A DNA stretch of 64,000 bases from an uncultured Eggerthellaceae bacterium (GCA_934617425.1 CAKTUD010000002.1:10011-74010); one strand, 5' to 3'; counted from the first letter of the stretch, positions 1,392 to 54,604 are shown. Notes: generated from the letters alone by a model not told the origin. Translations and numbers: made by a program.

Positions 1392-3332
1392 ATGGCTCAA
1401 TCAGGACTTGATTCCCTTTTGGAGGCCCTGAGGCAATCGGGTGTGGATCTCGGCGGCATGGGCGGCGGGGCTTCGGCCGATGCCGCCGAAGCTGAGGTCC
1501 ACGAGGCTTCTTCCGCACGCACTGGCGACAATGCCGGGCAGGCTGGTCGCGGATCGCATGCGCACGGCGGCATGGGCGGTGGCGGAAATGGACAGAATCC
1601 CCTCGGTATCGATTTCAGCGAATTCGGCGACAAGGTTCGCGGCTGGACGCGCAAGACGATTATCGGCGTGGCGATTGCTTTCGTGCTGGTGCTTTTGGTT
1701 GCTTACTGGTGGTTTCATCCGCCTATCAGCATCAACAGCGTTGACACGTGGATGTTCGTTGCGATTTTCATCTTGCTGCCGCTGTTCTTGTTCTTTCGCG
1801 CGCGCTCGCGTACGTATGAGACCGGCAACAGCAAAACCGATCCCGACCAAACGAAGCACAAGAGCTTTCGCATTTTGTCGTTCATCCCTATCGCCATCAT
1901 CGCGGTGGGCTTGATCGGTGCGCTGCTTTCGCTTGATTTTTTCCCGGGTAATGCCCAGAAATACGCGAATGTGCTGCAGACGCAGCAGCTTAATTTCACC
2001 GACGACATACAAGAAGTTGATTACTCGCAGATTCCTGTCATCGACCACGATTCCGCCGAGCTTTTGGGCAATCGCGAAATGGGCTCGATTCCCGAGTATG
2101 TCAGTCAGTTCGAGGTGGATGATCTGTATAGTCAGATCAACTATCAGGGTACGCCGGTGCGCGTGAGCCCGCTTGGATATGCCGACTTGTTTAAATGGCT
2201 TACTAACCGCGAGAACGGAATCCCCGCTTATGCGCTGGTTGACATGACCACGCAAGATGCTCAGATTGTAAAACTCGATCAGGGCATGAAATACACGGCT
2301 TCCGAACCATTGGCACGCAACATCGATCGCTACGTGCAGCTGAAATACCCCTTCTATATCTTTGACGAGAAGTCGTTTGAAATCGATGAGGATGGCCAGC
2401 CGTGGTGGGTGTGCCCCGTGCGCTCTTACACCATCGGCTTGTTCGGTGGCGAAACCATAAGCCGTGTGGTTTTGTGCAACGCCGTCACCGGTGAGTGCCA
2501 AGACATCGCTATTGGGGATGTTCCCCAATGGGTTGATCGCGCTTATCCTGCAAACCTGCTGATCAAGCAGTACAACTGGAGCGGTAAGTACATCAACGGT
2601 TGGTTTAACTCGTGGTTGGGGCAGTCGGGCGTGTACCAGACGACCCCGGGCAAGAACGGCGAGAACGGTTACAACTATCTTGCCAAGGATGATGACGTAT
2701 GGGTTTACACAGGTGTCACTTCGGCGACGTCTGACAGCTCGATCATCGGCTTTGTTCTTATAAACCAGCGTACGGCCGAGTCGCATTATTATTCGATTTC
2801 GGGTGCGACGGAGGATTCGGCTCAGGAATCCGCCGAGGGCCAGGTTCAGAATCTACGTTATACCGCCACGTTCCCCATATTGATCAATGTCGCCAACCAG
2901 CCTACGTATTTCATGGCCCTGAAAGACGCTGCGGGGTTGGTCAAGCAGTTTGCGATGATTGATATTCAGCGCTATCAGAACGTTGCCGTGGGCGATACCG
3001 TGGCGTCGTGCCAGAAGTCCTATGAGGCGCTGCTTGCCACAAACGGCGTGCTTTCTGGCGACGATGCGGCCGATCTTAGCAATCTGAGTAACGCGCAGGG
3101 TACTATCCGCACGTTGGCGCAGGGGGTTGTCGACGGCAATTCGCATTTCTACGTGACGCTTAGCGGCGACGGGCATATTTACGATTTCGCGTTGCCCGGT
3201 TTGGTTGAGATCGCCGCCTACGGCGTGGGCGATAGCATCAGCTTCAGCTATATCGAAGGTGACCCGACAAGCCCCGCTCAGGCAATAAAGAGTGCAGTAT
3301 CTACGGCATCGGAGGATACGCAAGCGGCTTAA
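1392..3332 (+). CDS. Hypothetical membrane protein with a Gly/Ala-rich cytoplasmic N-terminus, three predicted TM helices and a ~450-aa extracytoplasmic domain
   Basis: 646-aa ORF with GGAG 7 nt upstream of the ATG. Hydrophobic segments are IIGVAIAFVLVLLVAYWWF, WMFVAIFILLPLFLFF and ILSFIPIAIIAVGLIGALLSL. A strong terminator follows. I recognise no family. Confidence 0.7.
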   Translation: MAQSGLDSLLEALRQSGVDLGGMGGGASADAAEAEVHEASSARTGDNAGQAGRGSHAHGGMGGGGNGQNPLGIDFSEFGDKVRGWTRKTIIGVAIAFVLVLLVAYWWFHPPISINSVDTWMFVAIFILLPLFLFFRARSRTYETGNSKTDPDQTKHKSFRILSFIPIAIIAVGLIGALLSLDFFPGNAQKYANVLQTQQLNFTDDIQEVDYSQIPVIDHDSAELLGNREMGSIPEYVSQFEVDDLYSQINYQGTPVRVSPLGYADLFKWLTNRENGIPAYALVDMTTQDAQIVKLDQGMKYTASEPLARNIDRYVQLKYPFYIFDEKSFEIDEDGQPWWVCPVRSYTIGLFGGETISRVVLCNAVTGECQDIAIGDVPQWVDRAYPANLLIKQYNWSGKYINGWFNSWLGQSGVYQTTPGKNGENGYNYLAKDDDVWVYTGVTSATSDSSIIGFVLINQRTAESHYYSISGATEDSAQESAEGQVQNLRYTATFPILINVANQPTYFMALKDAAGLVKQFAMIDIQRYQNVAVGDTVASCQKSYEALLATNGVLSGDDAADLSNLSNAQGTIRTLAQGVVDGNSHFYVTLSGDGHIYDFALPGLVEIAAYGVGDSISFSYIEGDPTSPAQAIKSAVSTASEDTQAA

Positions 3333-5644: not shown

Positions 5645-7132
5645 ATGGCTGAAACAGCTAAGAAAGAGAAGAAGGACTTGTACTACCTTCATGTGGCCAT
5701 TGGCTTCGTGATTCTAGTACTGTTCTCTTGGGTGATTCCTGCACCCGATCCCATCACGCCGCTTGGCATGAAGGTTGTCGGCGCCTTCCTGATGATGGTT
5801 TACACCTGGTCGACCATCGGCACTCTGTGGCCGAGTCTTTTGGGCTTGTTCTTCGTCGGCATTTCCGGTGTCGGCGGCGACGCTGGCTTCAACGGCGTCT
5901 GGATGCAGGCCGTTGGTAACTACACCGTACTGCTGACCCTCTTCGCTATGGTTCTTTTCGGTGCCGTGGACGAAGTTGGCGATACGCTCTACATCTGCAA
6001 ATGGTTGCTTACTCGTAAGATCTTCGCTGGTCGTCCTTATGTGTTCCTGGCGATCTTCTACCTGTGCTGCTTCGTTCTGTCCACCTTGGTCAGCCCGATT
6101 TCCGGTTTGATCATCATGTGGCCGATTTCTCTGCGCTTGGCTGAGACTATGGGCATCAAGCGCGAAGATGCTTTCTGGAAGTTCTTCTTCGTTGGCATGT
6201 TCCTTTGCATGACCTTGGGCCAGCCGTTCTTCCCCTTCATGGGCGCTCAGCTGATCCCGTGCTCCGCATTCGCTTCCATGACCGGCATCTCCATGCCGAT
6301 GCTTCCCTACATGCTGGTGAACCTCATCATGACCTTCATCGTCATGGCTGTTTACCTGCTGCTCATCAAGCTTCTCCGCGTCGACATCTCCAAGCTGAAG
6401 GATGTTAACCCGCAGATGATCGAAGAGCAGATGCCGCTGCCTAAGATGAACCTGCAGCAGAAGGCATTCCTCTGGATGATCCCGCTTTACCTTATCGCGT
6501 TGATCGTCCCGTCCTTCCTCCCGAAGGACAACCCGGTTGTCGCTTTCCTGAACTCCCTCGGCGTTCTGGGCACCACCGTTGCGTTCTTCGTGTTCTTCTT
6601 GGTTGCTCGCTACAACGGCAAGCCGATGCTCGACATGAAGGAAGTCGCCTACAAGCAGTTCAACTGGGGCATCTTCTTCATGATCGCCGCAGCCGTGTTC
6701 ACCGCCAACCAGCTGTCTAGCTCCGCCACCGGCGTTTCCGCTTGGCTCGTTCAGGTGCTCGACCCGATCCTGGGCGGCCAGTCCGAGATGGGCTTCGTGG
6801 CCATCATGTTCACCGTTGCCCTGCTGATCACCAACTTCGCGAACAACGCCGCTATGGCTGTTGTCCTTCTGCCGGTTGTCATCCAGTTCTCTGCTAAGCT
6901 CGGCATCAGCCCGCTGCCGGTTGCCATGGGCGTCATCCTGATGGTGTTCGTCGCCATGCTGACCCCTGCCGCATCCCCGCATGCTGGCATGATGTGGGGC
7001 CGCAAGGACATCTACAGCCCCGGCGAGATCATGTCCGTCGGTCTGCCGATGTGCGTGGTCACCTTGGTTGGCTACATCGTCATCGGTTACCCGCTGGCAA
7101 AGATGCTCTGCTCTGCCTTTGGCGTGATCTAA
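5645..7132 (+). CDS. Ion-transporter-superfamily anion permease, paralog 2 of 3
   Basis: 495 aa, collinear with paralog 1. The C-terminal ~170 residues are nearly identical. SD GGAAAGGGAG lies upstream. Confidence 0.85.
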   Translation: MAETAKKEKKDLYYLHVAIGFVILVLFSWVIPAPDPITPLGMKVVGAFLMMVYTWSTIGTLWPSLLGLFFVGISGVGGDAGFNGVWMQAVGNYTVLLTLFAMVLFGAVDEVGDTLYICKWLLTRKIFAGRPYVFLAIFYLCCFVLSTLVSPISGLIIMWPISLRLAETMGIKREDAFWKFFFVGMFLCMTLGQPFFPFMGAQLIPCSAFASMTGISMPMLPYMLVNLIMTFIVMAVYLLLIKLLRVDISKLKDVNPQMIEEQMPLPKMNLQQKAFLWMIPLYLIALIVPSFLPKDNPVVAFLNSLGVLGTTVAFFVFFLVARYNGKPMLDMKEVAYKQFNWGIFFMIAAAVFTANQLSSSATGVSAWLVQVLDPILGGQSEMGFVAIMFTVALLITNFANNAAMAVVLLPVVIQFSAKLGISPLPVAMGVILMVFVAMLTPAASPHAGMMWGRKDIYSPGEIMSVGLPMCVVTLVGYIVIGYPLAKMLCSAFGVI

Positions 7133-7512: not shown

Positions 7513-8997
7513 ATGTCTGACGCAAAAGCTCAAAAGAAGAAGGGGAGCGCGTACCCGATTCATGTGGCTATCGGTTTCGCGATCATCTTCTTGTTCTCGT
7601 ACGTGCTGCCCGCACCTTCGCCGATCACCCCGGTTGGTATGAAGGTAGTTGGCGCATTTCTCGGTATGGTCTACCTATGGTCTACCATAGGCGCCTTGTG
7701 GCCGAGTTTGCTCGGTTTGTTCTTCGTCGCTATTTCCGGCATTGGCGGGGACGCTGGCTTCAACGGCGTTTGGATGCAGGCGATTGGCCGCGATACCGTT
7801 TTGCTTACCTTGTACGCAATGATCTTGTTCGGCGCTGTCGATGAGGTGGGCGACACCCTCTACATCACTAAATGGATCTTGACCCGCAAGATCTTCGCCG
7901 GCCGTCCGTTTGTGTTCTTGGCGCTTTGGTATTTCTGCAACTTTGTTCTGTCTGCTCTGGTTAGCCCGATTTCCTCGTTGATCATCTTGTGGCCTATTGC
8001 TTTGCGTATCGTCGAGGTCGTTGGCCTTAAGCGCGAAGACGCTTTCTGGAAGTTCTTCTTCGTAGGAATGTTCTTGGTGCAGACCCTGGGCCAGCCGTTC
8101 TTCCCCTTCATGGGCGCTCAGCTGATTCCGTGCTCGGCGTTTAAAGCTATGACGGGTATCGCTATGCCGATGCTTCCGTACATGCTGGTGAACTTCATCA
8201 TGACCGTGTTCGTCATGGCTGTGTTCCTGCTGCTCATCAAGGTGCTGCGTGTCGATATCTCCAAGTTCAAAGATCTTGATCCCAAGACCATCGAGGATGC
8301 GCTGCCGCTGCCTCCTATGGATTTCCGCCAGAAGGCTTTCTTGTGGATGATTCCTCTTTACTTGGCATTGCTGTTGGTGCCGTCGTTCCTTCCCAGCAAC
8401 CCCGTTGTCGATTTCCTCGCGGCAATCGACGTCAACGGCATCACGATTGCGTTCCTGCTGTTCTTCTTGATCGTGCGTTTCAACGGTCGCCCGATGCTCG
8501 ATTTCAAGGAGGTTTCCTACAAGCAGTTCGATTGGGGTATCTTCTTCATGATTGCTGCGGCCGTCTATACCGCAGGCATGCTTTCCGATGACGCTACCGG
8601 TGTTTCCTCCTGGCTTGTTCAGGTGCTGAACCCTGTTTTGGGCGGCCAGTCCGAGATGGGCTTCGTGGCCATCATGTTCACCGTGGCGCTTATCATCACC
8701 AACTTCGCGAACAACGCCGCCATGGCTGTCGTTTTGATGCCCGTTGTCATCGAGTTCTCCAACCGTTTGGGTATTAATCCGCTGCCGGTTGCCATGGGCG
8801 TCATCCTGATGGTGTTCGTCGCCATGTTGACCCCTGCCGCATCCCCGCATGCAGGCATGATGTGGGGCCGCAAGGACATCTACAGCCCGAAAGAAATCGT
8901 CTCTGTAGGCCTGCCGATGTGCGTCGTCACGCTGGTATCCTATATCTTTATCGGGTACCCCTTGGCTAAGACCTTGCTTGCGGCGTTCGGCTTCTAG
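7513..8997 (+). CDS. Ion-transporter-superfamily anion permease, paralog 3 of 3
   Basis: 494 aa, collinear with paralogs 1 and 2. SD GGAAGGGAG lies upstream. Confidence 0.85.
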   Translation: MSDAKAQKKKGSAYPIHVAIGFAIIFLFSYVLPAPSPITPVGMKVVGAFLGMVYLWSTIGALWPSLLGLFFVAISGIGGDAGFNGVWMQAIGRDTVLLTLYAMILFGAVDEVGDTLYITKWILTRKIFAGRPFVFLALWYFCNFVLSALVSPISSLIILWPIALRIVEVVGLKREDAFWKFFFVGMFLVQTLGQPFFPFMGAQLIPCSAFKAMTGIAMPMLPYMLVNFIMTVFVMAVFLLLIKVLRVDISKFKDLDPKTIEDALPLPPMDFRQKAFLWMIPLYLALLLVPSFLPSNPVVDFLAAIDVNGITIAFLLFFLIVRFNGRPMLDFKEVSYKQFDWGIFFMIAAAVYTAGMLSDDATGVSSWLVQVLNPVLGGQSEMGFVAIMFTVALIITNFANNAAMAVVLMPVVIEFSNRLGINPLPVAMGVILMVFVAMLTPAASPHAGMMWGRKDIYSPKEIVSVGLPMCVVTLVSYIFIGYPLAKTLLAAFGF

Positions 8998-9104: not shown

Positions 9105-9329
9105 ATAAGAGCTGCTTTTGGCAGTTTGTTAGTGGAAGCTGTTCCGCTACCTAAGACAGCTGGTGCCTATAAGGCTCAAACGCATATGCGGCCTGCCGAG
9201 GTGGTTGTGTATTTGATTGTACCGACCCCTGCTGTCTTGGTGACGGCGGGGGTCGTTTCTCTTTTCGAGAACTTACGATCCCACCGACGTTGGTGCGGAA
9301 CCTAAGTGCTTGAAAAGGAGGTGTACTAC
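9105..9329 (+). promoter_or_regulatory. rplJ 5' leader with a terminator-type attenuator hairpin (L10-leader-like autoregulatory region)
   Basis: ~225-nt untranslated leader. A 12-bp stem at 9223-9234/9244-9255 (CGACCCCTGCTG / CGGCGGGGGTCG, including two G-U pairs) is followed by TTTCTCTTTTCG, ~60 nt before the rplJ SD. Confidence 0.5.
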
Positions 9330-13340: not shown

Positions 13341-15260
13341 ATGGCGCAAGGGTTGACGAAAAAACAGCGGAAGAAGCGAAACCGAATCCTTATCGCATTG
13401 GCTGCGTTCGCCGTGCTGCTTGCTGCAAGCGATATTTTCGGGGTCTTCGAGGTATTGCCCGGCGGATTGTGGATTGAGTTTGCGGCTTTCTTGATCCCCT
13501 ACCTCATTGCCGGGTATGACGTTCTCCAAAAGGCGTGGCACGGCATAGTCCATAAACAGCCGTTTGATGAGAACCTGCTTATGGCCATTGCCACGATCGG
13601 TGCATTTGCTTTGGTGTTTTTCCCTGAGGCTGAGCCTCATATGGCCGAAGGCGCAGCGGTCATGTTGTTCTATCAAGTGGGCGAGCTGTTCGAAAGTTAC
13701 GCCACTAATAAAACGCGCCGCTCTATCTCCGAGATGATGGATATCGCTCCAGATTATGCGAACATCGAAGGGGAAGATGGCAAGCTTTTGCAGGTTGACC
13801 CTTACGAGGTCAAAGTCGGCGATGTTATCGTCGTCAAAGCTGGTGAGCGTATTCCCCTTGATGGAGTGGTTACCGATGGGCGCAGTCAGCTTGATACGAG
13901 CGCTCTTACCGGCGAGTCGGTTCCTCGTGTGGTTGAGCCGGGGGCGGAGGTTATCTCCGGCTGCGTGAACATGAGCGGCCTTTTGCGCGTGCGCGTTGCC
14001 AAACCGTACGGCGAGTCTACCGTGCAGCGTATTCTGGAGCTGGTAGAGAACGCCAGCGAGAAGAAAGCGCGTACCGAAAACTTCACCTCGCGTTTTGCGC
14101 GGTATTATACGCCCATTGTCGTTGGCGTGGCGGCTGCCATTGCAATCGTGAGCCCGTTTTTTGGATCTACTCTTACGGCGAGTGTTCGGAGCGCGCTGGT
14201 CTTTTTGGTCGTTAGCTGCCCGTGCGCGCTAGTCATCTCGGTGCCTCTATCGTTTTTCAGCGGGATCGGTGCAGCAAGTCGTATCGGCGTGCTGGTGAAA
14301 GGATCGAGCTATCTGGAGACCCTCGGCGCGGTCGACACCGTTGCTTTCGACAAGACGGGAACTCTTACCAACGGCTCGTTTAGCGTGATCGCGGTTCATG
14401 CAAAGGATGGCGTGGATCCCGACGAGGTTCTTTCTTACGCGGCTCATGCGGAATCCTATTCTGATCACCCAATCGCGGTTTCTGTCAAGGAAAGCTATTC
14501 GGGTGCTATCGACCAAAGCGTTATCGAAAATGTTGAAGAACGCTCGGGGCGTGGCGTTTGCGCCGATGTCGATGGGCGTCGTGTTTTTGTCGGCAACGAT
14601 AAGCTGATGGCCGAAGAAGGCGTGCCTTTCGAGCCGTGCGAACTGGTTGGTACCGTTTTGCACGTTGCTCTCGACGGTGTCTATATCGGCCATGTGATTA
14701 TCGCCGACACGCTGAAGGACGACGCTAAGGAGACGATTGATTCGCTGCATGCGGCGGGGGTTGGTCGTACGGTTATGCTTACGGGCGATCGCCGAGAGGT
14801 CGCGGAGGCTGTTGCCAACGAGCTGGGAATCGATGAGTTCTACGCTCAGCTTATGCCGCAGGATAAGGTTGATAGGGTCGAGCGTCTGCTTTCGAATGAG
14901 ACAGGTAAGGGCAAACTTGCTTTTGCAGGCGATGGCATAAACGATGCCCCTGTTCTTATGCGTGCCGACATAGGTATTGCTATGGGGGCTATGGGGTCGG
15001 ATGCAGCTATTGAAGCCGCGGATATCGTGCTGATGGATGACAAGCCCGCAAAAATAGCTTCGGCCATCAAGATTGCTCGGAAAACCATGCGCATCGTTTG
15101 GCAGAACATTATTTTCGCTATCGGCGTGAAGGTCGTCATCATGATTCTGGCTCTGCCGTTTATCGGCATCGCCACGATGTGGCTAGCTGTGTTTGGCGAT
15201 GTTGGGGTAAGCGTTATCGCCATTCTCAACTCCATGAGGGCTCTGAAGGCCGCAAAATAA
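13341..15260 (+). CDS. P1B-2-type heavy-metal (Zn/Cd/Pb-type) translocating P-type ATPase lacking a fused HMA domain
   Basis: Contains DKTGTLT, GDGINDAP, the TM6 motif SCPCALVISVP (CPCx4SxP), the TM7 motif NIIFAIGVK (Nx7K) and the TM8 motif GDVGVS (DxG). I prefer the ATG at 13341 with GAAAGGA upstream, because the longer ORF start at 13281 overlaps the chaperone gene. Confidence 0.9.
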   Translation: MAQGLTKKQRKKRNRILIALAAFAVLLAASDIFGVFEVLPGGLWIEFAAFLIPYLIAGYDVLQKAWHGIVHKQPFDENLLMAIATIGAFALVFFPEAEPHMAEGAAVMLFYQVGELFESYATNKTRRSISEMMDIAPDYANIEGEDGKLLQVDPYEVKVGDVIVVKAGERIPLDGVVTDGRSQLDTSALTGESVPRVVEPGAEVISGCVNMSGLLRVRVAKPYGESTVQRILELVENASEKKARTENFTSRFARYYTPIVVGVAAAIAIVSPFFGSTLTASVRSALVFLVVSCPCALVISVPLSFFSGIGAASRIGVLVKGSSYLETLGAVDTVAFDKTGTLTNGSFSVIAVHAKDGVDPDEVLSYAAHAESYSDHPIAVSVKESYSGAIDQSVIENVEERSGRGVCADVDGRRVFVGNDKLMAEEGVPFEPCELVGTVLHVALDGVYIGHVIIADTLKDDAKETIDSLHAAGVGRTVMLTGDRREVAEAVANELGIDEFYAQLMPQDKVDRVERLLSNETGKGKLAFAGDGINDAPVLMRADIGIAMGAMGSDAAIEAADIVLMDDKPAKIASAIKIARKTMRIVWQNIIFAIGVKVVIMILALPFIGIATMWLAVFGDVGVSVIAILNSMRALKAAK

Positions 15261-15317
15261 CAGTTGGGGTTTGCAAAAAGCAATTGCTTGGCTAGGCGGT
15301 AGGGTTCGCTTTGCTTG

Positions 15318-15356
15318 CGGGGCGCGTCTCCTTTGGGGATGCGCCCCGTTTCGTAT
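15318..15356. terminator. Terminator hairpin between convergent genes
   Basis: Stem CGGGGCGC/GCGCCCCG followed by TTTCGTATT on the + strand. Confidence 0.6.
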
Positions 15357-15409
15357 TGTGAATGGTTCGCTCGTATGCTTTTGCGCTATTGATCCGTTTG
15401 GCGTGTACT

Positions 15410-18400
15410 CTACGGACGTCGGTTTTTATTTCTGCTGCGCATCGCCATGACGGCCGCCACTCCCGCTACGCCGGCGATGAGCGCTGTTGCGGCAAATGGG
15501 ATGATGGAATCGCCGGTTTTTGCAAACGCTTTCTTAATTTTTTCTACTGCATTTTCTTTTTCGGGAGAAGTTGGCTTTGCGGGAAAGAGGACGGTCTGGT
15601 TTTTGTCGTTGATGTCTGCGTGTTCGGCTAGCGTTGTACCCTCTTGCGTTAGCGTCTCGAACGCGACAACCGCCTTGTCATCAAGATTCTCTGTATCAAG
15701 GGGGAACCTTAGCTCGATGTCTCCGCTGGATTCTTTCGACCTGAAGCTTGCCGTTGCGACAATGTCTTTCCCGTCGGCCTTCGTCAGCGTGCCCTCGTCG
15801 TCGGCGGTGCCGTTATCTTCGATTGAGGCTAGGTGAAGCGTTCCTTCGATTCGGTATTCGACATCGGGCATAAGATTCTCGTAGTGCACTTGATCGATAA
15901 TGGCTGTTTCTCCTTCGCTATTGTCGACGCGGGAACCGGTTTTCTCGCTTCGTGCGTTTGTGCTGATGAGAGGCACCAGCAGCGTCTGGTTTTCGTCGGA
16001 GATGTTCTCGTGCGCCGCTATGAGCTCTGCTCCTTTGTAGCATCTTTCAAATATAACGATGTTGAGCCCGCCGAGCTCTTTTCCGCACACGGTTAGGGGA
16101 ACCTCGGCTTCGCCCGAGGTTTCGTTCGGCGTGAAGAAGACTTCCGTGGTGATAGGTTCGCCTTCTTCATTCGTGACGGCTCCACCATCGCTGATTTTGC
16201 CATCGGCATCGGTGCTTGCAATGTGCGCCGTGGCCACAAGGCGATACTCCGTATTCGGCTCGAGATTGACGTAGGCAACGTTGTCGGTAATGCTGGCGCT
16301 GCCAAGTGCAGGCAAGATTTTCGCCCCGCTTTCATTGACGGTGGCCTTTGTTTCTATCTTCGGAAAAGCCACGGATTGGCTATCGTCCGATATGTCGGCG
16401 TGCGTTGCAAGGACGATATCGTTGCGTTCGAGTTTTTCGAATGCAACGACGGTTTTTCCTGCAAGAGAGGGTGCGTTGAAGATGAACGTGACCTCGACTT
16501 CGCCTGAGGATTCGCTTGGCGTGAACGTCTGCTTTGCGGTGATGGGGCTGCCCTTTTCGTCTTTGGCAGCACCTTCGTCACTTCCATCGGTTGAGCGAAC
16601 GTGCAGCTCAGCATTTAAGGTGTAGGTTTTCCCGGGCAGGAGCGCGTGGTACTCAACGGTGTCGATAAGTGTGCAGGCATCGGCAAGGTCGGGCGCGGTC
16701 AGTGCCTTTTCGGACTTTAATTTAGTTGAGATGCCGGGGAAAGTAACAGTTTGGTCGGTATCGGATGGGTCGGAATGCTCGGCGATTAGTTCGTTGTCGA
16801 GAGTTATTCGCTCGAAGGCGACCACCTGTTTGCCTGTAAGCGATGAGGAATCGAGAGAGAACTCGACCTCGGTTTTGCCGTTAGCGGTTTTAGGGGAAAA
16901 TTCGGTGGTTGCTATCACCGTTTCCCCCGATGCAGTGGTCACTGGGCCGCCGTCTTTTCGATTTCCATCGGCGTCGATTTCGACGAAGTGGAGCTCTCCT
17001 TGTGCAGCGTAGGCTTTGCCCGGCGTGAGCCCTTCGTAGTCTATCGTGTCGATGAGGCATACACTGTCGTTTGCTGCCGCCACGTGATCGCCGTTGGCGT
17101 TGGTTAGGGTCGTTCTTACTGTGGGCAGGGGGCTGTTGTCGACGGTTCCCAGATCGAGCTTCGTCTTATTGCGTTTTACGGTTATGTCAAAAGACAACAG
17201 CTCTTTTCCTTCGTTGGTCTTACAGCGCAGCTCTTCGATGCGGTAAGAGTCGAAGGGAAGCGCTCCTAGGGCGTCGTCCGCCTTGGTTGCGATGTTTTCG
17301 CGCCCGCTGAACCATAGACCGGCTTCGCTATTTAGATCGGCCTCTTCCGAGGCGAGGATGCCGTCATTTGCGTTCGTGTTTTTGGAGTGCGCGTTCCATT
17401 CGCTCGAGGTGTCGACGGTGCCGTTCTCATCGGTGACAACGACGTGTTTTTCCCCGCTTGTAAGGCTCGTTATGGCGAAAGGCACGCTCGCCATGCGCTC
17501 CATCGTCTTTCCATCTGCTTTAGAAAACGCTATGTCGCCGCGCTTTACCTGGTCGGATACGGATTCCGAGGTTGATGCGAGATCGTATACCTTTGCTTCG
17601 CGGATCGATACCGTTTTGCTCCAAGCACGCGAGTTGGCATCGATCAGGTAACCCTCGGGGGCTTCTATCTCTTTTATTTCGTAGGTGCCGAAGGGTAGGG
17701 CGTTTGACGCTGTCGAGGCGATGCCTGCCTCATCGGTTTCGATGGTGAGAATTGTTTGTCCTGGACGGTATTCGTTACCGTCAACGACTACCGAGTGGGC
17801 TGAACGGTTTGTCACGGAGAAGACGGCGCCTTCGAGTGTTGCCGCACCAAGGGGGTTGTGCTCGGAGGTCTCTCGGTCGATCTTGCCGATGGATATGCCG
17901 CCGCGCAGGACTTGTTCGGAAATCGCTGGGGCTTCATATCTCAACACGATGGGGGAGATTTCTTCCGAAGCTATGTTCACGATGAGATCGGGTGCATTGT
18001 CGAGCGCGTAACCGGATGGAGCGATGGTTTCGCGGACGAAGAGCGTCCCTAGAGGCAGACAGAGCCTCTCGTTTTGGGTGAAGAGCTTGTCGCCCGAGAT
18101 GAAGTAGGGCAACGTGGCACTTGCTACGCCGCTGTTGTCGTGGATATCGAAAGTGCTATCCGCATTCGAAAACTCGATTCTTCCCTGTTCATTTGTTTGC
18201 ATGATCCAGGTTCGCTTTTCGATGCCGTTTCGAGCGGCTGCGTCGGCTTCGCTTCGCGAGGAGAATTGTCCGCCATAGAAAGTTATCTCAAACTGCGCGC
18301 ACGCGAGCGAACCGTCGCCCTGCGATTCCGAGCGACCGGTTTCGGAGTCGTATTTGGAGAGCCATATCTCCATGGGGTTGTACTGAGGCTGCTCTCCGAT

Positions 18401-19387
18401 GCTTACCGTTGCTACTTCTCCGCTTGGCACTTCGACGGGATAGATGTTCTCATCGATGGCGTAACCCTTGGAGGGGGAGATCTCTTTCAGGTAGTATGTC
18501 CCGCATTTGATATCGTCCGCCTGGGCTTTGCCCTCGATGTCGGTTGCGAGAGTGACTATGGGGTCGGTGTTCCCCTGGGCGTGCGATTCGCTCGAATACA
18601 GGCCGTAAATAGCCCCTTCCAAGGAATAGTTCGCGTTGTTGGCGCTTATTCCGTTATTTGCGGACGATTTTCGCAAAGCAACGGATCCGGTGTTGTTCAC
18701 ACCCCGGTAGACAGCGAATCTCGACCAGCTGCCTTTTCCGTGGCCGCTAGACATATGCCAGATTCCAGGAAGCGATGACCCGGGATTGGCATCGAGTCCT
18801 TGCAACATGGTGCCGGAGTTTCCGTAAATGTCCGAAAATGAATTGGTGAAGGCATGGTAAACCATCACGATGCCGTCTACGCGCTCTCCGACGACGCCCA
18901 TATGGGTTGGCTCGGCTATTCCCGCGCTGTAGAAGAAGATGATGTCGCCTGCCTCCATTCGGCCGTCGCGTAAATCATCATCTGCTCCTTCCATGACGAA
19001 GCAGCCCTTTGCCTTGAGTTCATTTTCAAAAGACGTGGTGTAGTGCGTGTAATTTTGTCCCCCGAATGTGTTGAATGCCCATGAGACATAGCCGGAGCAA
19101 TCCCATCCGCTTTTCGACGCTCCTCCAAACAGGTAAGGCACACCAAGGCCTTCTTCGAGATGAGGTTTCAGTTCCTCCCAAGTAAGGTTGCAAGCAGGGT
19201 TTGCGTTGCTGTCCGCTTCGGCTTTTGGAGGGAAAACCAAAGACGGGAATGCTATTCCGGCGACAAGCGCCATCGCGAGCAGGCAGCCAAGCGCTTTCCT
19301 TCTCCGCCTTTCCTGTGGTATTCGCTTGAGGCGCAGGGTCTGCGCGCTCACCGAGTTTCCGAATAAACCCATTGGATCCCCTTTCAT
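15410..19387 (-). CDS. Cell-wall-anchored surface protein: signal peptide, NlpC/P60 (C40) peptidase domain, four SpaA/CnaB-type domains, four VaFE / Thr-Gln-ester-type repeats and an LAxTG-like sorting signal
   Basis: See the domain sub-features and findings. The start could be either M1 (19387) or M6 (19372). Confidence 0.9.
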   Translation of the reverse strand: MKGDPMGLFGNSVSAQTLRLKRIPQERRRRKALGCLLAMALVAGIAFPSLVFPPKAEADSNANPACNLTWEELKPHLEEGLGVPYLFGGASKSGWDCSGYVSWAFNTFGGQNYTHYTTSFENELKAKGCFVMEGADDDLRDGRMEAGDIIFFYSAGIAEPTHMGVVGERVDGIVMVYHAFTNSFSDIYGNSGTMLQGLDANPGSSLPGIWHMSSGHGKGSWSRFAVYRGVNNTGSVALRKSSANNGISANNANYSLEGAIYGLYSSESHAQGNTDPIVTLATDIEGKAQADDIKCGTYYLKEISPSKGYAIDENIYPVEVPSGEVATVSIGEQPQYNPMEIWLSKYDSETGRSESQGDGSLACAQFEITFYGGQFSSRSEADAAARNGIEKRTWIMQTNEQGRIEFSNADSTFDIHDNSGVASATLPYFISGDKLFTQNERLCLPLGTLFVRETIAPSGYALDNAPDLIVNIASEEISPIVLRYEAPAISEQVLRGGISIGKIDRETSEHNPLGAATLEGAVFSVTNRSAHSVVVDGNEYRPGQTILTIETDEAGIASTASNALPFGTYEIKEIEAPEGYLIDANSRAWSKTVSIREAKVYDLASTSESVSDQVKRGDIAFSKADGKTMERMASVPFAITSLTSGEKHVVVTDENGTVDTSSEWNAHSKNTNANDGILASEEADLNSEAGLWFSGRENIATKADDALGALPFDSYRIEELRCKTNEGKELLSFDITVKRNKTKLDLGTVDNSPLPTVRTTLTNANGDHVAAANDSVCLIDTIDYEGLTPGKAYAAQGELHFVEIDADGNRKDGGPVTTASGETVIATTEFSPKTANGKTEVEFSLDSSSLTGKQVVAFERITLDNELIAEHSDPSDTDQTVTFPGISTKLKSEKALTAPDLADACTLIDTVEYHALLPGKTYTLNAELHVRSTDGSDEGAAKDEKGSPITAKQTFTPSESSGEVEVTFIFNAPSLAGKTVVAFEKLERNDIVLATHADISDDSQSVAFPKIETKATVNESGAKILPALGSASITDNVAYVNLEPNTEYRLVATAHIASTDADGKISDGGAVTNEEGEPITTEVFFTPNETSGEAEVPLTVCGKELGGLNIVIFERCYKGAELIAAHENISDENQTLLVPLISTNARSEKTGSRVDNSEGETAIIDQVHYENLMPDVEYRIEGTLHLASIEDNGTADDEGTLTKADGKDIVATASFRSKESSGDIELRFPLDTENLDDKAVVAFETLTQEGTTLAEHADINDKNQTVLFPAKPTSPEKENAVEKIKKAFAKTGDSIIPFAATALIAGVAGVAAVMAMRSRNKNRRP
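15413..15526 (-). other. C-terminal sortase sorting signal
   Basis: FAKTGD (LAxTG-like), then the hydrophobic helix SIIPFAATALIAGVAGVAAVMAM, then the basic tail RSRNKNRRP. Confidence 0.75.
15584..17122 (-). repeat. Four tandem ~125-130-aa Ig-like repeats of the VaFE / Thr-Gln ester-bond type (coding repeats, residues 756-1268)
   Basis: Each repeat carries (V/I)VAFE or IVIFE and ends with an HxDxxDxxQ-type motif: EHSDPSDTDQTVTFP, THADISDDSQSVAFP, AHENISDENQTLLVP and EHADINDKNQTVLFP. Approximate repeat boundaries are 17122-16736, 16735-16361, 16360-15971 and 15970-15584. Confidence 0.75.
18833..19204 (-). other. NlpC/P60 catalytic domain (residues ~62-185)
   Basis: PYLFGGASKSGWDCSGYVSWAF carries the catalytic Cys. 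AEPTHMGVV and MVYHAF carry the His residues. Confidence 0.8.
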
Positions 19388-19620
19388 ACGCTGGCTGTTT
19401 TGCGAGCGACAGTAAGCGCGGGGTTCGTTTGAGGCGTGTTCGATGCATGCTGCCTGCTCGTCGGATGGGCGTTTATGGTAGTTGGGAAATCTAGCGGGGG
19501 AGTCTTTCGTTCCTTACGTTATTTCAGCGAAAATCGATCAGTTGCCCATCGTGTTTTCGACGAGGCTTAAACGTCTCTTCGCCAGGCATTAAGCGCTAAT
19601 TTCCTTTACTTCGTCCGCCG

Positions 19621-19649
19621 TTAGAGTTCGCTCCTATTTGCCGTACAAT
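19621..19649 (+). promoter_or_regulatory. Putative glmS promoter
   Basis: TTAGAG, a 17-nt spacer, then TACAAT. Confidence 0.35.
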
Positions 19650-19666
19650 AGCAACCGGCGTTGTGC

Positions 19667-19700
19667 CGCCGCGTCGTTTGGGGCGCGGCGTTTGATTTGT
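19667..19700 (+). promoter_or_regulatory. Terminator-like hairpin in the glmS 5' leader
   Basis: Stem CGCCGCG/CGCGGCG (extendable by 2 bp) followed by TTTGATTTGT, ~40 nt upstream of the glmS ATG. Confidence 0.4.
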
Positions 19701-19739
19701 TCCACTGGGGTCTGTGCTTCGATCACTAAGGAGATGCAC

Positions 19740-21578
19740 ATGTGCGGTATCGTCGGTTACACCGGGACTAAAGCGGCAAGTTCCATTCTGCTGGGCGGCC
19801 TAAAACGGCTTGAGTATCGAGGCTATGATTCTGCGGGCATTGCCACGGAAGAGCCTGATGGCGCTGCGCGAAAGCTGCAGGTCATTCGTCGTCGCGGGCG
19901 CGTTGAGAATCTTGAGCATACGGCTTCCCATTTCGGCCTTTCCGGTACGTGCGGGATAGGCCATACGCGATGGGCGACGCACGGGCGCCCCTCTGAGGCA
20001 AATGCGCATCCGCACGTTTCGTGCGATGGGCATATTGCGTTGGTGCATAACGGCATCGTCGAAAACTTCGCCGATTTGCGTGAGCGTCTTGAAGCGACGG
20101 GACATGAGTTCGCGAGTGAGACTGATACCGAGACAATCGTTCATTTGATCGAGGATTGCTACGAGGGCGATCTTTTCGACGCTGTTCGTGCTGCCGCTAC
20201 GCAAATCGTCGGCTCTTACGGCTTGGCCGTTGTGGACGATCGTGAGCCTGGTGTGATCGTTGTCGCGAGAAAAGACTCGCCTTTGGTTGTCGGCGTAGCC
20301 GAGGATGGGTGCTACCTTGCATCCGATTCGATAGCCATCATTAATGCCACGCGTGATGTCGTTGTTCTCGAAGATGATCAGTTCGCAAAGCTCACCCCGC
20401 AGGGAGCAAGCTATTTTGATGCGCATGGACAAGAAATCGATCCTGCGATAACCCATATAGACTGGGATATGGATGTTGCGGAAAAGGGCGGATACCCCGA
20501 CTTTATGCTTAAGGAGATTCACGAGCAGCCGCGTGTCATACGCGACACCTTGGCGGGGCGGTTGGTGAACGGCGCGTTGGAGATAGACGAGCTGGATATG
20601 AGCCCCGAAGAGCTCAACTTGATCGATCGCGTATACGTGATCGCGTGCGGGACGAGCTATCATGCGGGTTTGGTGGCAAAAGAGCTTATCGAAGGATGGG
20701 CGCGCATTCCCACGGAAGTCGAGGTGGCGAGTGAGTTTCGCTATCGAAATCCTATAATCACGCCCACTACGTTGGTTGTTGCTGTTTCGCAGTCGGGCGA
20801 GACCGCAGATACTTTGGCGGCCATTCGCGATGCGAAAGTGAAAGGCGCTCGCGTGTTCGGCATCACCAATGTTCTCGGCAGCCCTGTCGCGCGCGAGGCG
20901 GATGGCGTTATCTACACCAAGGCTAACAAGGAAATAGCCGTTGCCTCGACGAAATCGTTTTTGGGACAGGTTGTGAGTTTGACTCTTTTGGCGATGCTCC
21001 TTGCGCAGGCGAAGGGCAAGTTGAAAATGAACCAGATCCGCCTGCTGTTCCGCGAGCTCGCCGATACGGCGGAGCAGGTCGAAGAGATTCTCTCTTCCTG
21101 CATAGATGCCGTCGACGCGGCTGCTGCAGCATGCAAAGACGCCGCTAGCGCGCTATTTATCGGGCGCGGCATGGGCGCGGCGGTTGCCCGTGAGGGGGCC
21201 TTGAAGCTGAAGGAGATAAGCTATCTGCATGCCGAGGCTTATGCGGCGGGTGAGATGAAACATGGACCGATCGCATTGATCGACAGCGGATTTCCTGTTA
21301 TCGCAATCGCAACGAAAAGCCCGGTTTACGACAAGGTTGTTTCCAATTTGCAAGAAAGCCGCGCTCGTGGGGCGAAAATCGTCGTTATCGCGACCGAAGG
21401 CGATGAGGATATCAAGAATCACGCCGATTACGTCATCTACATTCCCAAGGTGCGTGATGCGTTCTCGGCAATAACGGCGAGTGTGCCGTTACAGCTGTTG
21501 GCGCGCTCGATTGCGGTTCTGCGTGGCTGCGACGTTGACCAACCGCGCAATTTGGCGAAAGCGGTAACGGTGGAGTAG
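19740..21578 (+). CDS. glmS: Glutamine--fructose-6-phosphate aminotransferase
   Basis: The mature N-terminus is MCGIVGY, where Cys is the Ntn nucleophile, so the start is the ATG at 19740 with AAGGAG upstream. SIS-domain motifs SQSGETADT are present, and the C-terminus reads LAKAVTVE. Confidence 0.96.
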   Translation: MCGIVGYTGTKAASSILLGGLKRLEYRGYDSAGIATEEPDGAARKLQVIRRRGRVENLEHTASHFGLSGTCGIGHTRWATHGRPSEANAHPHVSCDGHIALVHNGIVENFADLRERLEATGHEFASETDTETIVHLIEDCYEGDLFDAVRAAATQIVGSYGLAVVDDREPGVIVVARKDSPLVVGVAEDGCYLASDSIAIINATRDVVVLEDDQFAKLTPQGASYFDAHGQEIDPAITHIDWDMDVAEKGGYPDFMLKEIHEQPRVIRDTLAGRLVNGALEIDELDMSPEELNLIDRVYVIACGTSYHAGLVAKELIEGWARIPTEVEVASEFRYRNPIITPTTLVVAVSQSGETADTLAAIRDAKVKGARVFGITNVLGSPVAREADGVIYTKANKEIAVASTKSFLGQVVSLTLLAMLLAQAKGKLKMNQIRLLFRELADTAEQVEEILSSCIDAVDAAAAACKDAASALFIGRGMGAAVAREGALKLKEISYLHAEAYAAGEMKHGPIALIDSGFPVIAIATKSPVYDKVVSNLQESRARGAKIVVIATEGDEDIKNHADYVIYIPKVRDAFSAITASVPLQLLARSIAVLRGCDVDQPRNLAKAVTVE

Positions 21579-34176: not shown

Positions 34177-34229
34177 TAGGCGTATTGCTTGGTCGAGCTT
34201 TGATCGGCCAAGCGGAGATTGGTGTTCAA

Positions 34230-36995
34230 ATGGCACAAGCTAAAACCAAGAAGAAAAAGGCGACGGGTTCGAACGATCGCCGCAACATATGGCTGCTTGT
34301 CATCACCACCGTTTTGCTGGTGGTGTCGGTGGCTTTGTTCATGCCTCCCGACAAGAAAATCAATCAGGGTCTTGATATCCAGGGCGGCTTGTCAGTCGTT
34401 CTTACGGCTTCCACCACCGACGGCAGCGACATTACCGATTCGGACATGGAAACGTCGCGTGCCATCATCGAGAACCGTGTGAATGCGCTGGGTGCTTCCG
34501 AAGCAGTGGTGCAAACTCAGGGGAAAGATCAGATTTTGGTGCAAATCCCCGGCTTGTCTGACACCGAGGAAGCTTTGGCAACCATCGGTAAGACCGGCAA
34601 ACTCGAGTTTGCGCGTCTCGACTCGTTTACCGACAGCGATGTGGTTACCAAGATAAACAATGGCGACTACGGCGACGAGGGAACCATCACCGATTCGTTT
34701 GGCAACAAGCTTCCCTCGGGCCAAAAGCAGACGCTTGCTGTCGAAGAGGGCACCTACACCCCGCTTATCACTGGTGAAAATATCAAGAATGTAACGGTCG
34801 ACCGTGCAAGCGAAACTGCGAGCACTTACGCCGTGAACCTAACGCTCGACTCCGACGGGACCAAAGCATTCGCCGATGCGACTAAGGATCTTGCTTCGAG
34901 CAAGGGGAAGATCGTCATCATTCTCGATGGCGAGGTACAGAGCGCTCCGGCCGTGCAATCGGAGATTCTCACGGGGAATGTGTCCATCACGGGTGGATAC
35001 ACCCAGGATCAGGCGAGCAATCTGAAAACCATCCTCGAGTCGGGTTCGTTGCCGGTGAGCTTCTCGTTCTCGCAGAGCCAGGTAGTTGGTCCTACGCTCG
35101 GCCAAGATGCGCTTGGCTCGGGCGTCGTCGTGGCGCTTTTGGGCTTGCTGCTGGTGATGATCTACCTGTTGGTTTTCTATCGCGGCTTGGGCACGATCAC
35201 TGCGGCGGCTATGGTCGTATTCGCCGTTTTCTATCTGGGGATTTTGGCCGGTCTTTCGCATTTCGGCTTGTTCAGCCTTTCGCTTTCGGGCGTCGCCGGC
35301 ATTGTTCTCACCATCGGCATGGCGGCCGACTCGTCCGTTCTCACGGTTGAGCGCTTCCGCGAAGAGATTCGTATGGGACGCAGCGTACGTGCGGCTTCCA
35401 TAACGGGCGTGCGCCACGCGATCCAGACTTCCATCGACGCCGACTTGGTCACGTTGGTGAGCGCGCTGTGCTTGTTCTTCTTAGCGTCGTCTTCGGTCAA
35501 GGGTTTCGGCCTCACGCTTGCGCTGGGCATTTTGTGCGACATCGTCATGATGCTTTTGTTCAAGGCTCCGCTTATCCGTTTGATTGCGCCGCGCTCTATC
35601 GCGAAGCATCCAGGATTTTGGGATATCAAAGACGGTCAGGTTGCAGCAGAGGTGTATGCCGACCTTGCAACGGTTGAGGGTGTTACCGCTGGTGAAGCGG
35701 AGATTGGCGAGGCCCTCGATCGCGAAGAGACGCGTCGGGTCGTCGAGGCTCGCGGCGGCGATACCGCTGCGGGGCTTCTCGAGCGTGTCCGCGGCGTGAA
35801 GGGCCGTTTCATCAAGCACGACATCAACTTCCTGGGCCATCGCAAGGTTTTGCTGGGGATATCGGCTGTATTAGTGGTTTTGTCGTTTGTCGTCGTGGGC
35901 GTGCGCGGGCTCGATTTCGGCATCGAGTTCGTGGGTGGCACTTCCATTGCCTTCCATGACACGGGGGATGTGACGATTGGGGAGATGCGTGCGGCCATGA
36001 ACGAGGCGGGCGAGCCCGATGCCGTTATCCAGACCACGTTCTCCGATGGCGAAGAGGGCTTTTTGGTTCGCACCACTACGACCGATGCTCAAAGCGCTAC
36101 GGCGACTGCAAACCAAGTTGCAAGCCAGCTGGGCTTCACCTCGGATGGTTTCGAGGTGACCACTATAGGTCCCGACTGGGGGTCGAGCGTCATCAATGCG
36201 TCGCTTATCGCGTTCTTGGTGTCGATTGCCCTGATCATCGTCTACATTGCTATCCGCTTTGAGTACAAGATGGGCTTTACCGCGGTCGTCGCCTTGCTGC
36301 ATGACCTGATCATCGTTATGGGCGTATATGCGCTGGTCGGGCGCGAAGTCAACCCCAACACCATCGCCGCATTGCTCACTATCTTGGGTTATTCGCTCTA
36401 CGACACGGTGGTCGTGTTTCACCGCATCAACGACAATATGAGCGATCTTGGATTGAAGTGCTCCTTTATGACAATGGCGAACCACTCGATCAATCAGGTT
36501 TTCATTCGTTCGCTTAACACCACGCTTACCTCGCTTATCCCGGTTGTCGCCATGCTTCTTTTCGGTGGCGAAACTTTGAAGGACTTTGCTTTCGCCATGG
36601 CAATCGGCCTGGTTGCGGGCGCGTATTCGTCCATCGCGGTCGCAAGCCCCCTGTTCGCCATGTGGAAGACGCGCGAGTCTCGTTATGCGAAACTGCAGAA
36701 ACGTTTCCCCGATGTTGGTTCTTTCGAGTTCGATCGCTCGAATGGGAAAGCTGCTGCTTCGGTGGCCAACTCCCGCGCTGCTCGCGTTAAGAGCAATGCC
36801 GCGCAAAATGCCGGCTTGCTGGGTGTCTCGAACGCCTCTAAGGCCGAAGCTCCCACGAAGGCTGCGCAGCCCCCGCTTGATGCTCAGCCGGAAGACCCCG
36901 CTGTTTCGCCGGCTTTGAGCGATAATCAAAAAGAAGTCCCCGTGCATAACGACCATGCACGCGGCGGCAAGCGCAAGAACAAGAAGAGAAAGTAG
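34230..36995 (+). CDS. secDF: Fused protein-export membrane protein SecD/SecF with a low-complexity basic C-terminal tail
   Basis: The SecD part contains LDIQGGLSVVL and VGPTLGQDAL. The SecF part contains GLDFGIEFVGGTS, YSLYDTVVVFHRI and INQVFIRSLNT. The tail ends ...GGKRKNKKRK. Confidence 0.92.
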   Translation: MAQAKTKKKKATGSNDRRNIWLLVITTVLLVVSVALFMPPDKKINQGLDIQGGLSVVLTASTTDGSDITDSDMETSRAIIENRVNALGASEAVVQTQGKDQILVQIPGLSDTEEALATIGKTGKLEFARLDSFTDSDVVTKINNGDYGDEGTITDSFGNKLPSGQKQTLAVEEGTYTPLITGENIKNVTVDRASETASTYAVNLTLDSDGTKAFADATKDLASSKGKIVIILDGEVQSAPAVQSEILTGNVSITGGYTQDQASNLKTILESGSLPVSFSFSQSQVVGPTLGQDALGSGVVVALLGLLLVMIYLLVFYRGLGTITAAAMVVFAVFYLGILAGLSHFGLFSLSLSGVAGIVLTIGMAADSSVLTVERFREEIRMGRSVRAASITGVRHAIQTSIDADLVTLVSALCLFFLASSSVKGFGLTLALGILCDIVMMLLFKAPLIRLIAPRSIAKHPGFWDIKDGQVAAEVYADLATVEGVTAGEAEIGEALDREETRRVVEARGGDTAAGLLERVRGVKGRFIKHDINFLGHRKVLLGISAVLVVLSFVVVGVRGLDFGIEFVGGTSIAFHDTGDVTIGEMRAAMNEAGEPDAVIQTTFSDGEEGFLVRTTTTDAQSATATANQVASQLGFTSDGFEVTTIGPDWGSSVINASLIAFLVSIALIIVYIAIRFEYKMGFTAVVALLHDLIIVMGVYALVGREVNPNTIAALLTILGYSLYDTVVVFHRINDNMSDLGLKCSFMTMANHSINQVFIRSLNTTLTSLIPVVAMLLFGGETLKDFAFAMAIGLVAGAYSSIAVASPLFAMWKTRESRYAKLQKRFPDVGSFEFDRSNGKAAASVANSRAARVKSNAAQNAGLLGVSNASKAEAPTKAAQPPLDAQPEDPAVSPALSDNQKEVPVHNDHARGGKRKNKKRK

Positions 36996-52787: not shown

Positions 52788-53228
52788 ATGAAGGTAAGCA
52801 TCGCAAGCGATCACGCCGGCTTCGATGAGAAGCAGCTGCTTGTCCCGTTCCTGAAAGAGCAAGGCTACGAGGTTATCGACCGCGGTCCCGAATCAGCCGA
52901 CCGCGTAGATTATCCCGATTATGCCGAGCTTGTCGCGCGCGATATCGAATCCGGCGAGGCTGAGCGCGGCATCCTCATCTGCGGCACCGGCATCGGTATG
53001 TCCCTTGCTGCCAACAAGTGCGAAGGGATTCGCGCGGCGAATGTCACCATGCCTGAACTCGCAGCGCTTTCCCGCCAGCATAACGACGCCAACGTCATTT
53101 GCATTTCCGGCCGCTTTGTAAGCGACGAGGACAATCGCGCCATCGTCAAGGCATTCCTCGAGACCGAGTTCGAGGGCGGCCGTCACGAACGTCGCGTCGA
53201 GAAAATCATGGCGCTCGAAAACGAGTAG
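52788..53228 (+). CDS. rpiB: Ribose-5-phosphate isomerase B
   Basis: Contains [28 protein letters not shown] and [13 protein letters not shown]. Confidence 0.94.
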
Positions 53229-53305
53229 CTAGCAACCAAGGTTTCACTAGTTGGGTGCGCGGAGTGGATTCGCGCGTCCGTGGGTATAGCGAAGGAGCTA
53301 TTCAT

Positions 53306-54559: not shown

Positions 54560-54604
54560 GGCGAGGCGGAAGGGTATCGTTTCGAGCCGATTTGCGAGGG
54601 AATC

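Follow-up and report, generated by a model that had tools for sequence, protein, structure and literature searches.

The closest described systems to the protein analyzed here are the thioester-isopeptide-ester (TIE) adhesins, among them Cpe0147 of Clostridium perfringens, BaTIE of Bacillus anthracis (PDB 6FWV), and TIEpLS20 (p34) of Bacillus subtilis pLS20. They consist of a signal peptide, an N-terminal distal head, CnaB/SpaA-type domains, T-Q repeats with the motif H-x4-D-x2-Q, and a C-terminal sortase-type signal. Some members are carried by conjugative elements and required for mating-pair formation in Gram-positive bacteria (PMC8092201). The same layout was found in the product of a gene at positions 15410-19387 (minus strand) of a 64,000-nucleotide stretch of DNA from an uncultured Eggerthellaceae bacterium (GCA_934617425.1, CAKTUD010000002.1:10011-74010); the whole stretch is referred to below as the window, and the product as the window protein. 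The two differ in the head, which is a thioester domain in the TIE adhesins and an NlpC/P60 domain in the window protein, and in the sorting motif, which is FAKTG and not LPXTG. The window protein was read as a sortase-anchored 'fibrillar enzyme', i.e., a TIE-type adhesin in which a peptidoglycan peptidase would replace the thioester warhead and engage the wall of an apposed cell, and this reading was given a probability of about 0.4.

No match to PF08341 or any other thioester domain was obtained for the window protein at E ≤ 0.1 (Pfam), and it is therefore not a member of the TIE family. Homologs of its stalk (P0054-P0059) carry PF08341 at the position occupied here by NlpC/P60, and the top structural match of the stalk is BaTIE (see below), which makes apt the comparison with Cpe0147-type adhesins drawn in an earlier reading of the sequence alone (hereafter, the first-pass annotation). 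The nearest solved sequence relative is the SrtB-anchored collagen-binding adhesin of Clostridioides difficile (fragment 7K1U), whose likeness is limited to the stalk, namely its first three domains. This adhesin has a signal of the x-x-K-T-G type, and its dependence on a class B sortase is given by the depositors' name for it (PMC10586155).

For the head, the comparators are MepS (Escherichia coli), SagA (Enterococcus faecium), LytE (B. subtilis), and Acd24020 (C. difficile), which share the papain-like fold, the Cys-His-His triad, and its sequence context. These P60-clade enzymes are lipoproteins or are targeted by coiled-coil, LysM, or SH3 regions, whereas the window head is N-terminal on a stalk with a covalent anchoring signal and has an additional C-terminal extension of ~55-60 residues. 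In a survey of wall-hydrolase architectures, the partners of NlpC/P60 are LysM, SH3, SLH, SPOR, CWB, and ChW, not LPXTG (PMC6403190). 'Fibrillar enzymes', as outlined by Monzon and Bateman 2022 (PMC9210967), combine stalk repeats, an anchor, and an enzymatic tip, a concept that the window protein fits; a text search of the same paper returned no NlpC/P60-tipped, TQ/SpaA-stalked, sortase-anchored case, the examples there having other catalytic folds and stalk types.

Conjugative transposons normally carry an NlpC/P60 hydrolase and a CnaB LPXTG adhesin as separate genes (PMC6814731). This is the arrangement of the hydrolases (CwlT/Orf14/PrgK) and adhesins (PrgB/CD0386) of integrative and conjugative elements (ICEs), while the stalk protein fuses both functions. 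Hydrolases of the CwlT/Orf14/PrgK type are encoded in the type IV secretion system (T4SS) cluster, as are paralogs of the window gene, but not the window copy itself. No description of a fused NlpC/P60-stalk-anchor architecture was found in the open full-text literature (subscription-only papers not covered). Judged from the sequences collected here, the design appears to be rare but recurrent, with a candidate link to Gram-positive conjugation.

The first-pass annotation had divided the reading frame into six parts, all of which were recovered by profiles, structures, and direct reading of the sequence. The features are as follows (residues are numbered in the 1325-codon frame).

15410-19387, minus strand: whole open reading frame (ORF), 1325 codons and a stop; probable start at ATG 19372 (M6).
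19214-19372, minus strand: signal peptide, residues 6-58, with a basic N-region, a hydrophobic core, and AEA/DS cleavage (read from the sequence).
18683-19213, minus strand: NlpC/P60 (C40) head, residues 59-235 (Pfam, triad, AlphaFold2, Foldseek).
19097-19099, minus strand: catalytic Cys97, in the DCSG motif.
18902-18904, minus strand: catalytic His162, in the THMG motif.
18854-18856, minus strand: catalytic His178, in the YHA motif.
17138-18682, minus strand: four SpaA/CnaB-type (prealbumin-like) domains, residues ~236-335, 336-490, 491-605, and 606-750 (Pfam, 7K1U, AlphaFold2, Foldseek).
15572-17137, minus strand: four T-Q ester (VaFE) Ig-like repeats, residues 751-887, 888-1012, 1013-1142, and 1143-1272 (PF18202, NF033903, motifs).
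15413-15571, minus strand: linker (residues 1273-1287), FAKTG, and the hydrophobic helix with the basic tail (residues 1293-1325) (sequence, orthologs).
15512-15526, minus strand: FAKTG sorting motif (sequence).
15317-15349, no strand: GC-rich hairpin of 15 bp between the stalk-protein gene and the convergent ATPase gene.

The NlpC/P60 core was matched by PF00877 (Pfam) with 40 bits against a cutoff of 23, over residues 82-165. In an alignment of the head with 22 relatives, reaching down to ~30% identity, His162 and His178 were invariant and Cys97 was kept in 22 of the 23 sequences, the sole exception being P0175, where Ser replaces the catalytic Cys. The triad, whose loss the first-pass annotation had named as a ground for rejection, is thus conserved. 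Its context, G.PY.(F/W)GG...GWDCSG and H-x11-15-YHA, is kept as well, and the C-terminal extension of the subfamily is conserved, with the pattern W..GGHGK..YRG. An AlphaFold2 model of the head built on the 23-sequence alignment had a predicted local distance difference test score (pLDDT) of 90.9. When the head was compared with PDB by Foldseek, 37 matches were obtained at E ≤ 1e-3, with NlpC/P60 peptidoglycan hydrolases predominant; the best include MepS, SagA, LytE, and Acd24020 (E from 5e-7 to 6e-6, target-normalized template modeling score 0.6-0.76, identity ~16-22%). Profile, triad, and papain-like alpha+beta fold all place the head in NlpC/P60, and from sequence and model we infer a catalytically competent P60-type D,L-endopeptidase (gamma-D-Glu/diamino acid).

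The stalk was resolved into two sets of domains. The SpaA profile PF17802 (Pfam) gave 114 bits with two significant stretches, and 7K1U was aligned to residues 240-586 with E=2e-52. The AlphaFold2 model of residues 236-765 (pLDDT 82.9) was all-beta, and its strand pattern can be read as four domains, in agreement with the count of the first-pass annotation, although the fourth has no clean G-Y-x-E..P-GY signature. In structure (Foldseek), this model came closest to 6FWV, the TIE protein of B. anthracis, and to 7K1U, with Gram-positive pilins next. As candidate sites of the intramolecular isopeptide bonds known from CnaB/SpaA-type domains, conserved Lys and Glu positions were seen, and in domain 1 a Glu is aligned to an Asp of 7K1U. 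The four VaFE repeats were recovered with both PF18202 (Pfam, 349 bits) and NF033903 (NCBIfam VaFE, 375 bits), in four stretches each. Every T-Q repeat has an N-terminal Thr (759, 888, 1013, and 1143), a D-x-[VI]-x-Y acid, and H-x4-D-x2-Q, which correspond to the ester-bond residues T450, D480, H572, D577, and Q580 of Cpe0147 (PMC12679949). The Cpe0147 structures 4MKM and 4NI6 gave weak but specific matches to the repeats, which by their motifs are predicted to be able to self-crosslink through Thr-Gln ester bonds. An Ig-like domain is ~4 nm long, and the eight-domain stalk was estimated by us, at ~4 nm per domain, to measure roughly 30 nm.

At the N-terminus, the predicted signal-peptide cleavage falls after the hydrophobic core, between AEA (residues 56-58) and DS (from residue 59), and an equivalent hydrophobic leader is present in all orthologs. 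Tat export was considered for the RRRRK run and dropped; the run is not conserved among orthologs, and Sec export was therefore assumed. The C-terminus has the three elements of a sorting signal, i.e., FAKTGD, a 20-residue hydrophobic helix, and the basic tail RSRNKNRRP, with FAKTG in the place of canonical LPXTG. Orthologs retain [FLY][ATD]KTG[DN], the transmembrane segment, and the basic tail. The linker before FAKTG has ~15 residues only.

Neither the window nor the ±10-kb flanks on the same contig contain a sortase gene, and no second protein with a sorting signal is encoded in the window. The first-pass statement that no sortase is adjacent thus stands for the window locus, but not for some of its relatives. 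In two more divergent chromosomal orthologs (L084/P0044, with the signal YDKTGN, and L085/P0042, with FAKTGN), a gene of ~250 aa lies directly downstream; its product has the active-site motif TLCTCS, and its top NCBIfam match is class B sortase (E 1e-27 to 2e-31, under the equivalog cutoff). A homolog of this sortase (~46% identical) is found directly upstream of the paralog gene at seven ICE-borne loci with FDKTG signals. The FAKTG motif resembles the x-x-K-T-G signals of relatives with a neighboring class-B-like sortase gene. A cognate sortase, likewise class-B-like, is probably encoded elsewhere in the genome, since the window lineage keeps its sorting motif, helix, and basic tail although the surrounding tail is only 33-49% identical.

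In L084 (11162-11920) and L085 (6623-7390), the class-B-like sortase gene lies between the stalk-protein gene and murB. At the corresponding place in the window (15261-15409) this gene is gone, and a cluster of ArsR, HMA, and P-type ATPase genes stands in its place; in the P0008 clade (L002) the ATPase cluster has the opposite orientation relative to the stalk-protein gene and lies on the other side of murB. Loss or relocation of the sortase in the window lineage therefore coincides with a local rearrangement.

One flank of the window gene is formed by genes for an ArsR regulator, an HMA protein, and a P-type ATPase, and the other by glmS, as the first-pass annotation had it (metal-efflux cluster and glmS). 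The wider window carries housekeeping genes (secDF, an AddAB-like nuclease-helicase, queA, tgt, ATP synthase, ACPS, ligA, murB, and rplJL), and the neighborhood of the stalk-protein gene is not a conjugative T4SS gene cluster. About 45 protein clusters (90% identity) share PF00877, PF17802, and PF18202. Orthologs P0003/P0083 (65% identity) and those of the P0008 clade (52% identity) occupy the same chromosomal place as the window gene, in a shared locus with glmS, ACPS, ligA, murB, a Cu-type ATPase cluster, and rplJL; one 90%-identity cluster of the P0008 clade has 203 member sequences, Hadza gut samples included. In the GTDB representative set, which lacks the species of the window, the top match to the head was 76% identical. 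At all ortholog loci examined, in several Eggerthellaceae lineages, murB and/or glmS adjoin the gene. The gene is thus no isolated oddity but belongs to a core locus. The GC content of the gene (0.544) and that of its third codon positions (GC3, 0.624) match those of neighboring genes and the synteny is kept; the gene is therefore, as judged by sequence, vertically inherited, and recent horizontal acquisition was ruled out on the same grounds.

The protein is best conserved at its tip and least at its base. Identity to orthologs is 75-85% in the head, 45-69% in the SpaA part, and 37-56% in the TQ part, and the nonsynonymous divergence (dN) against L086 is 0.11, 0.23, and 0.35, respectively, so that the head is the slowest-evolving region. 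The ratio dN/dS was unusable, because the synonymous divergence (dS) had reached saturation in the SpaA and TQ parts (>1.6) and had no defined value in the head; dN and identity are reported instead. Slow evolution of the head is what is predicted for a chemically invariant target such as peptidoglycan, whereas tips that bind to hosts typically show the opposite. The number of intact TQ motifs per ortholog varies from one to four, as expected of a spacer. In the P0008 clade (e.g., L002:10001-13945, 52% identical), two repeats only match the strict H-x4-D-x2-Q, and the number of cross-linked repeats may differ between lineages.

The wider family was collected by an exhaustive HMMER search and a GTDB scan, as word-indexed searches with the head alone or the head profile gave fragments only. 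Among 1.84 billion representative proteins, HMMER with the head gave only nine hits below 1e-10. Most head-wide matches are the N-terminal domain of proteins of ~650-2200 aa; ten of these were scanned with Pfam, and a SpaA stalk was found in all ten and a TQ domain in five, most of them ending in x-x-K/Q-T-G. The GTDB scan gave 418 hits, and head-wide matches were present at 37 loci of the species set, spanning Eggerthellaceae, Coriobacteriaceae, Atopobiaceae, Collinsella, Olsenella, Thermophilibacter, Gordonibacter, and Adlercreutzia, as well as Bifidobacterium merycicum, Lachnospiraceae, Dorea, and Eubacterium. In the distant relatives with the head-stalk-anchor layout, which come from Collinsella, Olsenella, Gordonibacter, Adlercreutzia, Bifidobacterium, and Lachnospiraceae, the head is ~31-35% identical to that of the window protein. 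Stalks in the family may be as short as one TQ repeat or as long as 16 SpaA domains. A tblastn search of 72,556 plasmids with the head gave no match at E ≤ 1e-8.

Several paralogs are surrounded by genes of mobile elements, conjugative ones in Collinsella sp. An7 and B. merycicum. In Collinsella sp. An7, the paralog gene comes after those for VirD4/TraG and a VirB4/TraC-like ATPase. In B. merycicum, VirD4 and VirB4 are followed by a separate GH73+NlpC/P60 hydrolase, then by two small ORFs, and then by the stalked protein. In Gordonibacter sp. An230, the paralog is found among genes for ParA, a ParB-like protein, PAPS-reductase/DUF3440, and a 2013-aa methylase-helicase. The placement in conjugative elements suggests the role of a cell-contact adhesin. 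As the conventional T4SS hydrolase is also on the B. merycicum element, the fused protein is no replacement for it and appears to fill the surface-adhesin role, not the hydrolase role. An identical 763-aa protein was found in Adlercreutzia rubneri, a Collinsella metagenome-assembled genome (MAG), and Gordonibacter (L023, L025, and L026), which indicates horizontal spread and points to active spread of this kind among gut Coriobacteriia.

Apart from this, a 926-aa protein is present at L034, L035, L036, and L047, its copies equal in length and identical in stretches at both termini, like those of the 763-aa set; the carriers of the two sets are A. rubneri, the Collinsella MAG, Gordonibacter sp. 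An230, and Candidatus Aphodovivens, and Gordonibacter sp. An230 has two different copies on two contigs. The separate hydrolase of B. merycicum DSM 6492 (L013:5855-7525, 556 aa, GH73 glucosaminidase and NlpC/P60), directly after VirB4, looks like the canonical T4SS wall hydrolase of its element. Derivation of the stalked head from this hydrolase was ruled out, as the two are not specifically similar and only the Cys motif aligns.

Under the preferred reading, the protein would be exported by Sec, and a sortase would then cleave the FAKTG signal and link it to peptidoglycan. The eight tandem beta-sandwich domains would form a rigid stalk of ~30 nm with the P60-type endopeptidase at its distal tip, the 'ligand' of which would be the peptidoglycan stem peptide on whichever surface the tip meets. 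The head would bind the apposed wall and cut it locally. The apposed cell would be a sister cell or a neighboring bacterium, and copies on conjugative elements would meet a mating partner. An invariant ligand is suggested by the tip being more conserved than the stalk, and an apposed-cell target by the homology of the design to mating and contact adhesins together with its presence in ICE clusters. A bolder version is more doubtful: the proteins would form a previously undescribed class of TIE-like fibers that grip and nick the wall of another bacterium, the ICE copies with their private class-B-like sortase serving as mating-pair adhesin and recipient-wall opener, and the Eggerthellaceae copy being domesticated for cell-cell contact. 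At the extreme, a slowly deacylating Cys acyl-enzyme may attach covalently to the stem peptide of the partner, mimicking thioester adhesion.

A number of observations weigh against an apposed-cell target. The window is devoid of a sortase gene, and the ICE association comes from paralogs that share only ~31-35% identity in the head. For its part, the window gene is on the chromosome, with native GC and housekeeping synteny beside glmS and near murB, and a function directed at the producer's own wall would suit this setting no less well. Ordinary chromosomal surroundings were also seen for some copies of the family (Olsenella sp. An290 and one Lachnospiraceae genome). With a linker of ~15 residues, part of the stalk may be buried, which would place the head near the cell's own outer surface; and as neither an immunity nor an inhibitor gene adjoins the stalk-protein gene, antagonism would call for some other self-protection. 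The first-pass inference of action on neighboring cells has indirect support from paralogs of the same layout in conjugative elements, but the core locus equally fits a housekeeping wall role. The accompanying argument, that the head is held far from the producer's wall, may not hold, given that a stalk of ~30 nm is about as long as a Gram-positive wall is thick and that an anchored rod can pivot.

The main alternative, and a serious one, is a self-directed autolysin, held somewhat less probable than the preferred reading. The stalk would span the cell's own wall or act as a ruler, and the head would trim the outermost or septal peptidoglycan while sparing the inner, load-bearing layers; an enzyme of this kind would serve wall turnover or daughter-cell separation. 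Besides the comparable stalk length and wall thickness and the pivoting rod, this would account for the closest folds (MepS, LytE, and Acd24020), those of enzymes that act as housekeeping autolysins or in elongation or separation, and for the core locus beside the precursor genes glmS and/or murB at all ortholog loci examined. Native GC, the missing immunity gene, the very short linker, and the high conservation of the head fit as well. Known separation autolysins, however, target the wall non-covalently (LysM, SH3, or CWB), and the table of the survey cited above has no LPXTG partner (PMC6403190). Moreover, the layout moves between genera on conjugative elements, which is odd for a housekeeping enzyme, and stalks ranging between a single TQ repeat and 16 SpaA domains speak against a ruler of fixed length.

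Contact-dependent antagonism, in which the displayed peptidase would lyse competitors on contact, is improbable. An active-looking wall hydrolase on a reach-out stalk and a densely populated gut habitat are in line with it, but no immunity or inhibitor gene is adjacent at any locus examined, a single tethered endopeptidase outside a thick wall would be a weak weapon, and the head is conserved, not diversified as toxin domains are.

We also hold a host-directed or signaling role to be unlikely, in which the head would release muropeptides, as SagA does, or cleave host or dietary gamma-glutamyl compounds at the mucosa. SagA is among the top structural matches and the organisms are gut commensals; a tethered enzyme, however, is ill-placed to produce diffusible signals, and the ICE-borne paralogs suggest a function between bacteria. 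Host gamma-glutamyl substrates had been proposed in the first-pass annotation, but no evidence for them was found, and nothing in the sequence points to a substrate other than peptidoglycan.

Least probable is a catalytically silent head, a simple adhesin tip with peptidoglycan or some other ligand, for which the Ser of P0175 and the difficulty of distinguishing catalytic from adhesive tips in fibrillar surface proteins (PMC9210967) could be cited, against Cys/His/His kept in 22 of 23 heads across ~30% identity and the lowest dN in the protein.

How Gram-positive donors grip recipients and pass thick walls during conjugation is poorly understood, and a wall peptidase displayed on a stalk and accompanied, on mobile elements, by a sortase of its own is a concrete, genetically testable candidate. 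The elements move between gut Coriobacteriia, Bifidobacterium, and Lachnospiraceae, and cultured carriers of paralogs are Gordonibacter sp. An230, Adlercreutzia rubneri ResAG-91, Collinsella sp. An7, and B. merycicum DSM 6492. The conservation of the chromosomal copy across common human-gut Eggerthellaceae suggests that the design also has a lasting function in the physiology of the cell, be it contact between cells or trimming of its own wall within a restricted area. With the window protein, an enzyme joins the modules known from cross-linked TIE stalks, which serve as scaffolds in protein engineering.

The ORF runs without interruption on the minus strand, the strand being absent from the first-pass annotation. 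Its second ATG (M6, 19372) is preceded by a AAAGGGGA ribosome-binding site, and the database protein P0002, identical in sequence and 1320 aa long, begins there; for both reasons, M6 is probably the true start and the product 1320 aa. The hairpin at 15317-15349 is likely a bidirectional terminator. The gene appears to be monocistronic, since the hairpin separates it from the convergent ATPase gene and it is divergent from glmS. Rfam gave no RNA element near the gene; a glmS ribozyme, in particular, is missing from the 250 bp between this gene and the divergent glmS (19388-19637). A sigma-70 scan of 15100-19800 gave no promoter-like site, such a scan being uninformative for this phylum.

Elsewhere in the window, ORFs at 1392-3332 (plus strand, 646 aa) and 53183-54775 (minus strand, 530 aa) had no Pfam match at E ≤ 1e-5. 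They are overlapped by long ORFs on the opposite strand (1401-2786 and 53099-54559), and one or both may therefore not be real genes. Genes for a PD-(D/E)XK nuclease (37421-40201, 926 aa) and a UvrD helicase plus nuclease (40205-43990, 1261 aa), both on the plus strand, look like an AddAB/AdnAB-type system for double-strand-break processing, and a fused secDF gene (34185-36995) just precedes the pair. Tandem paralogs of a CitMHS-family transporter (5645-7132, 495 aa, and 7513-8997, 494 aa, plus strand) recur in unchanged order in L001 and L002, the orthologous contigs. An L10 leader (RF00557, 49 bits) was identified at 9132-9270 on the plus strand, upstream of rplJ-rplL, as the only Rfam family at the gathering threshold in the window.

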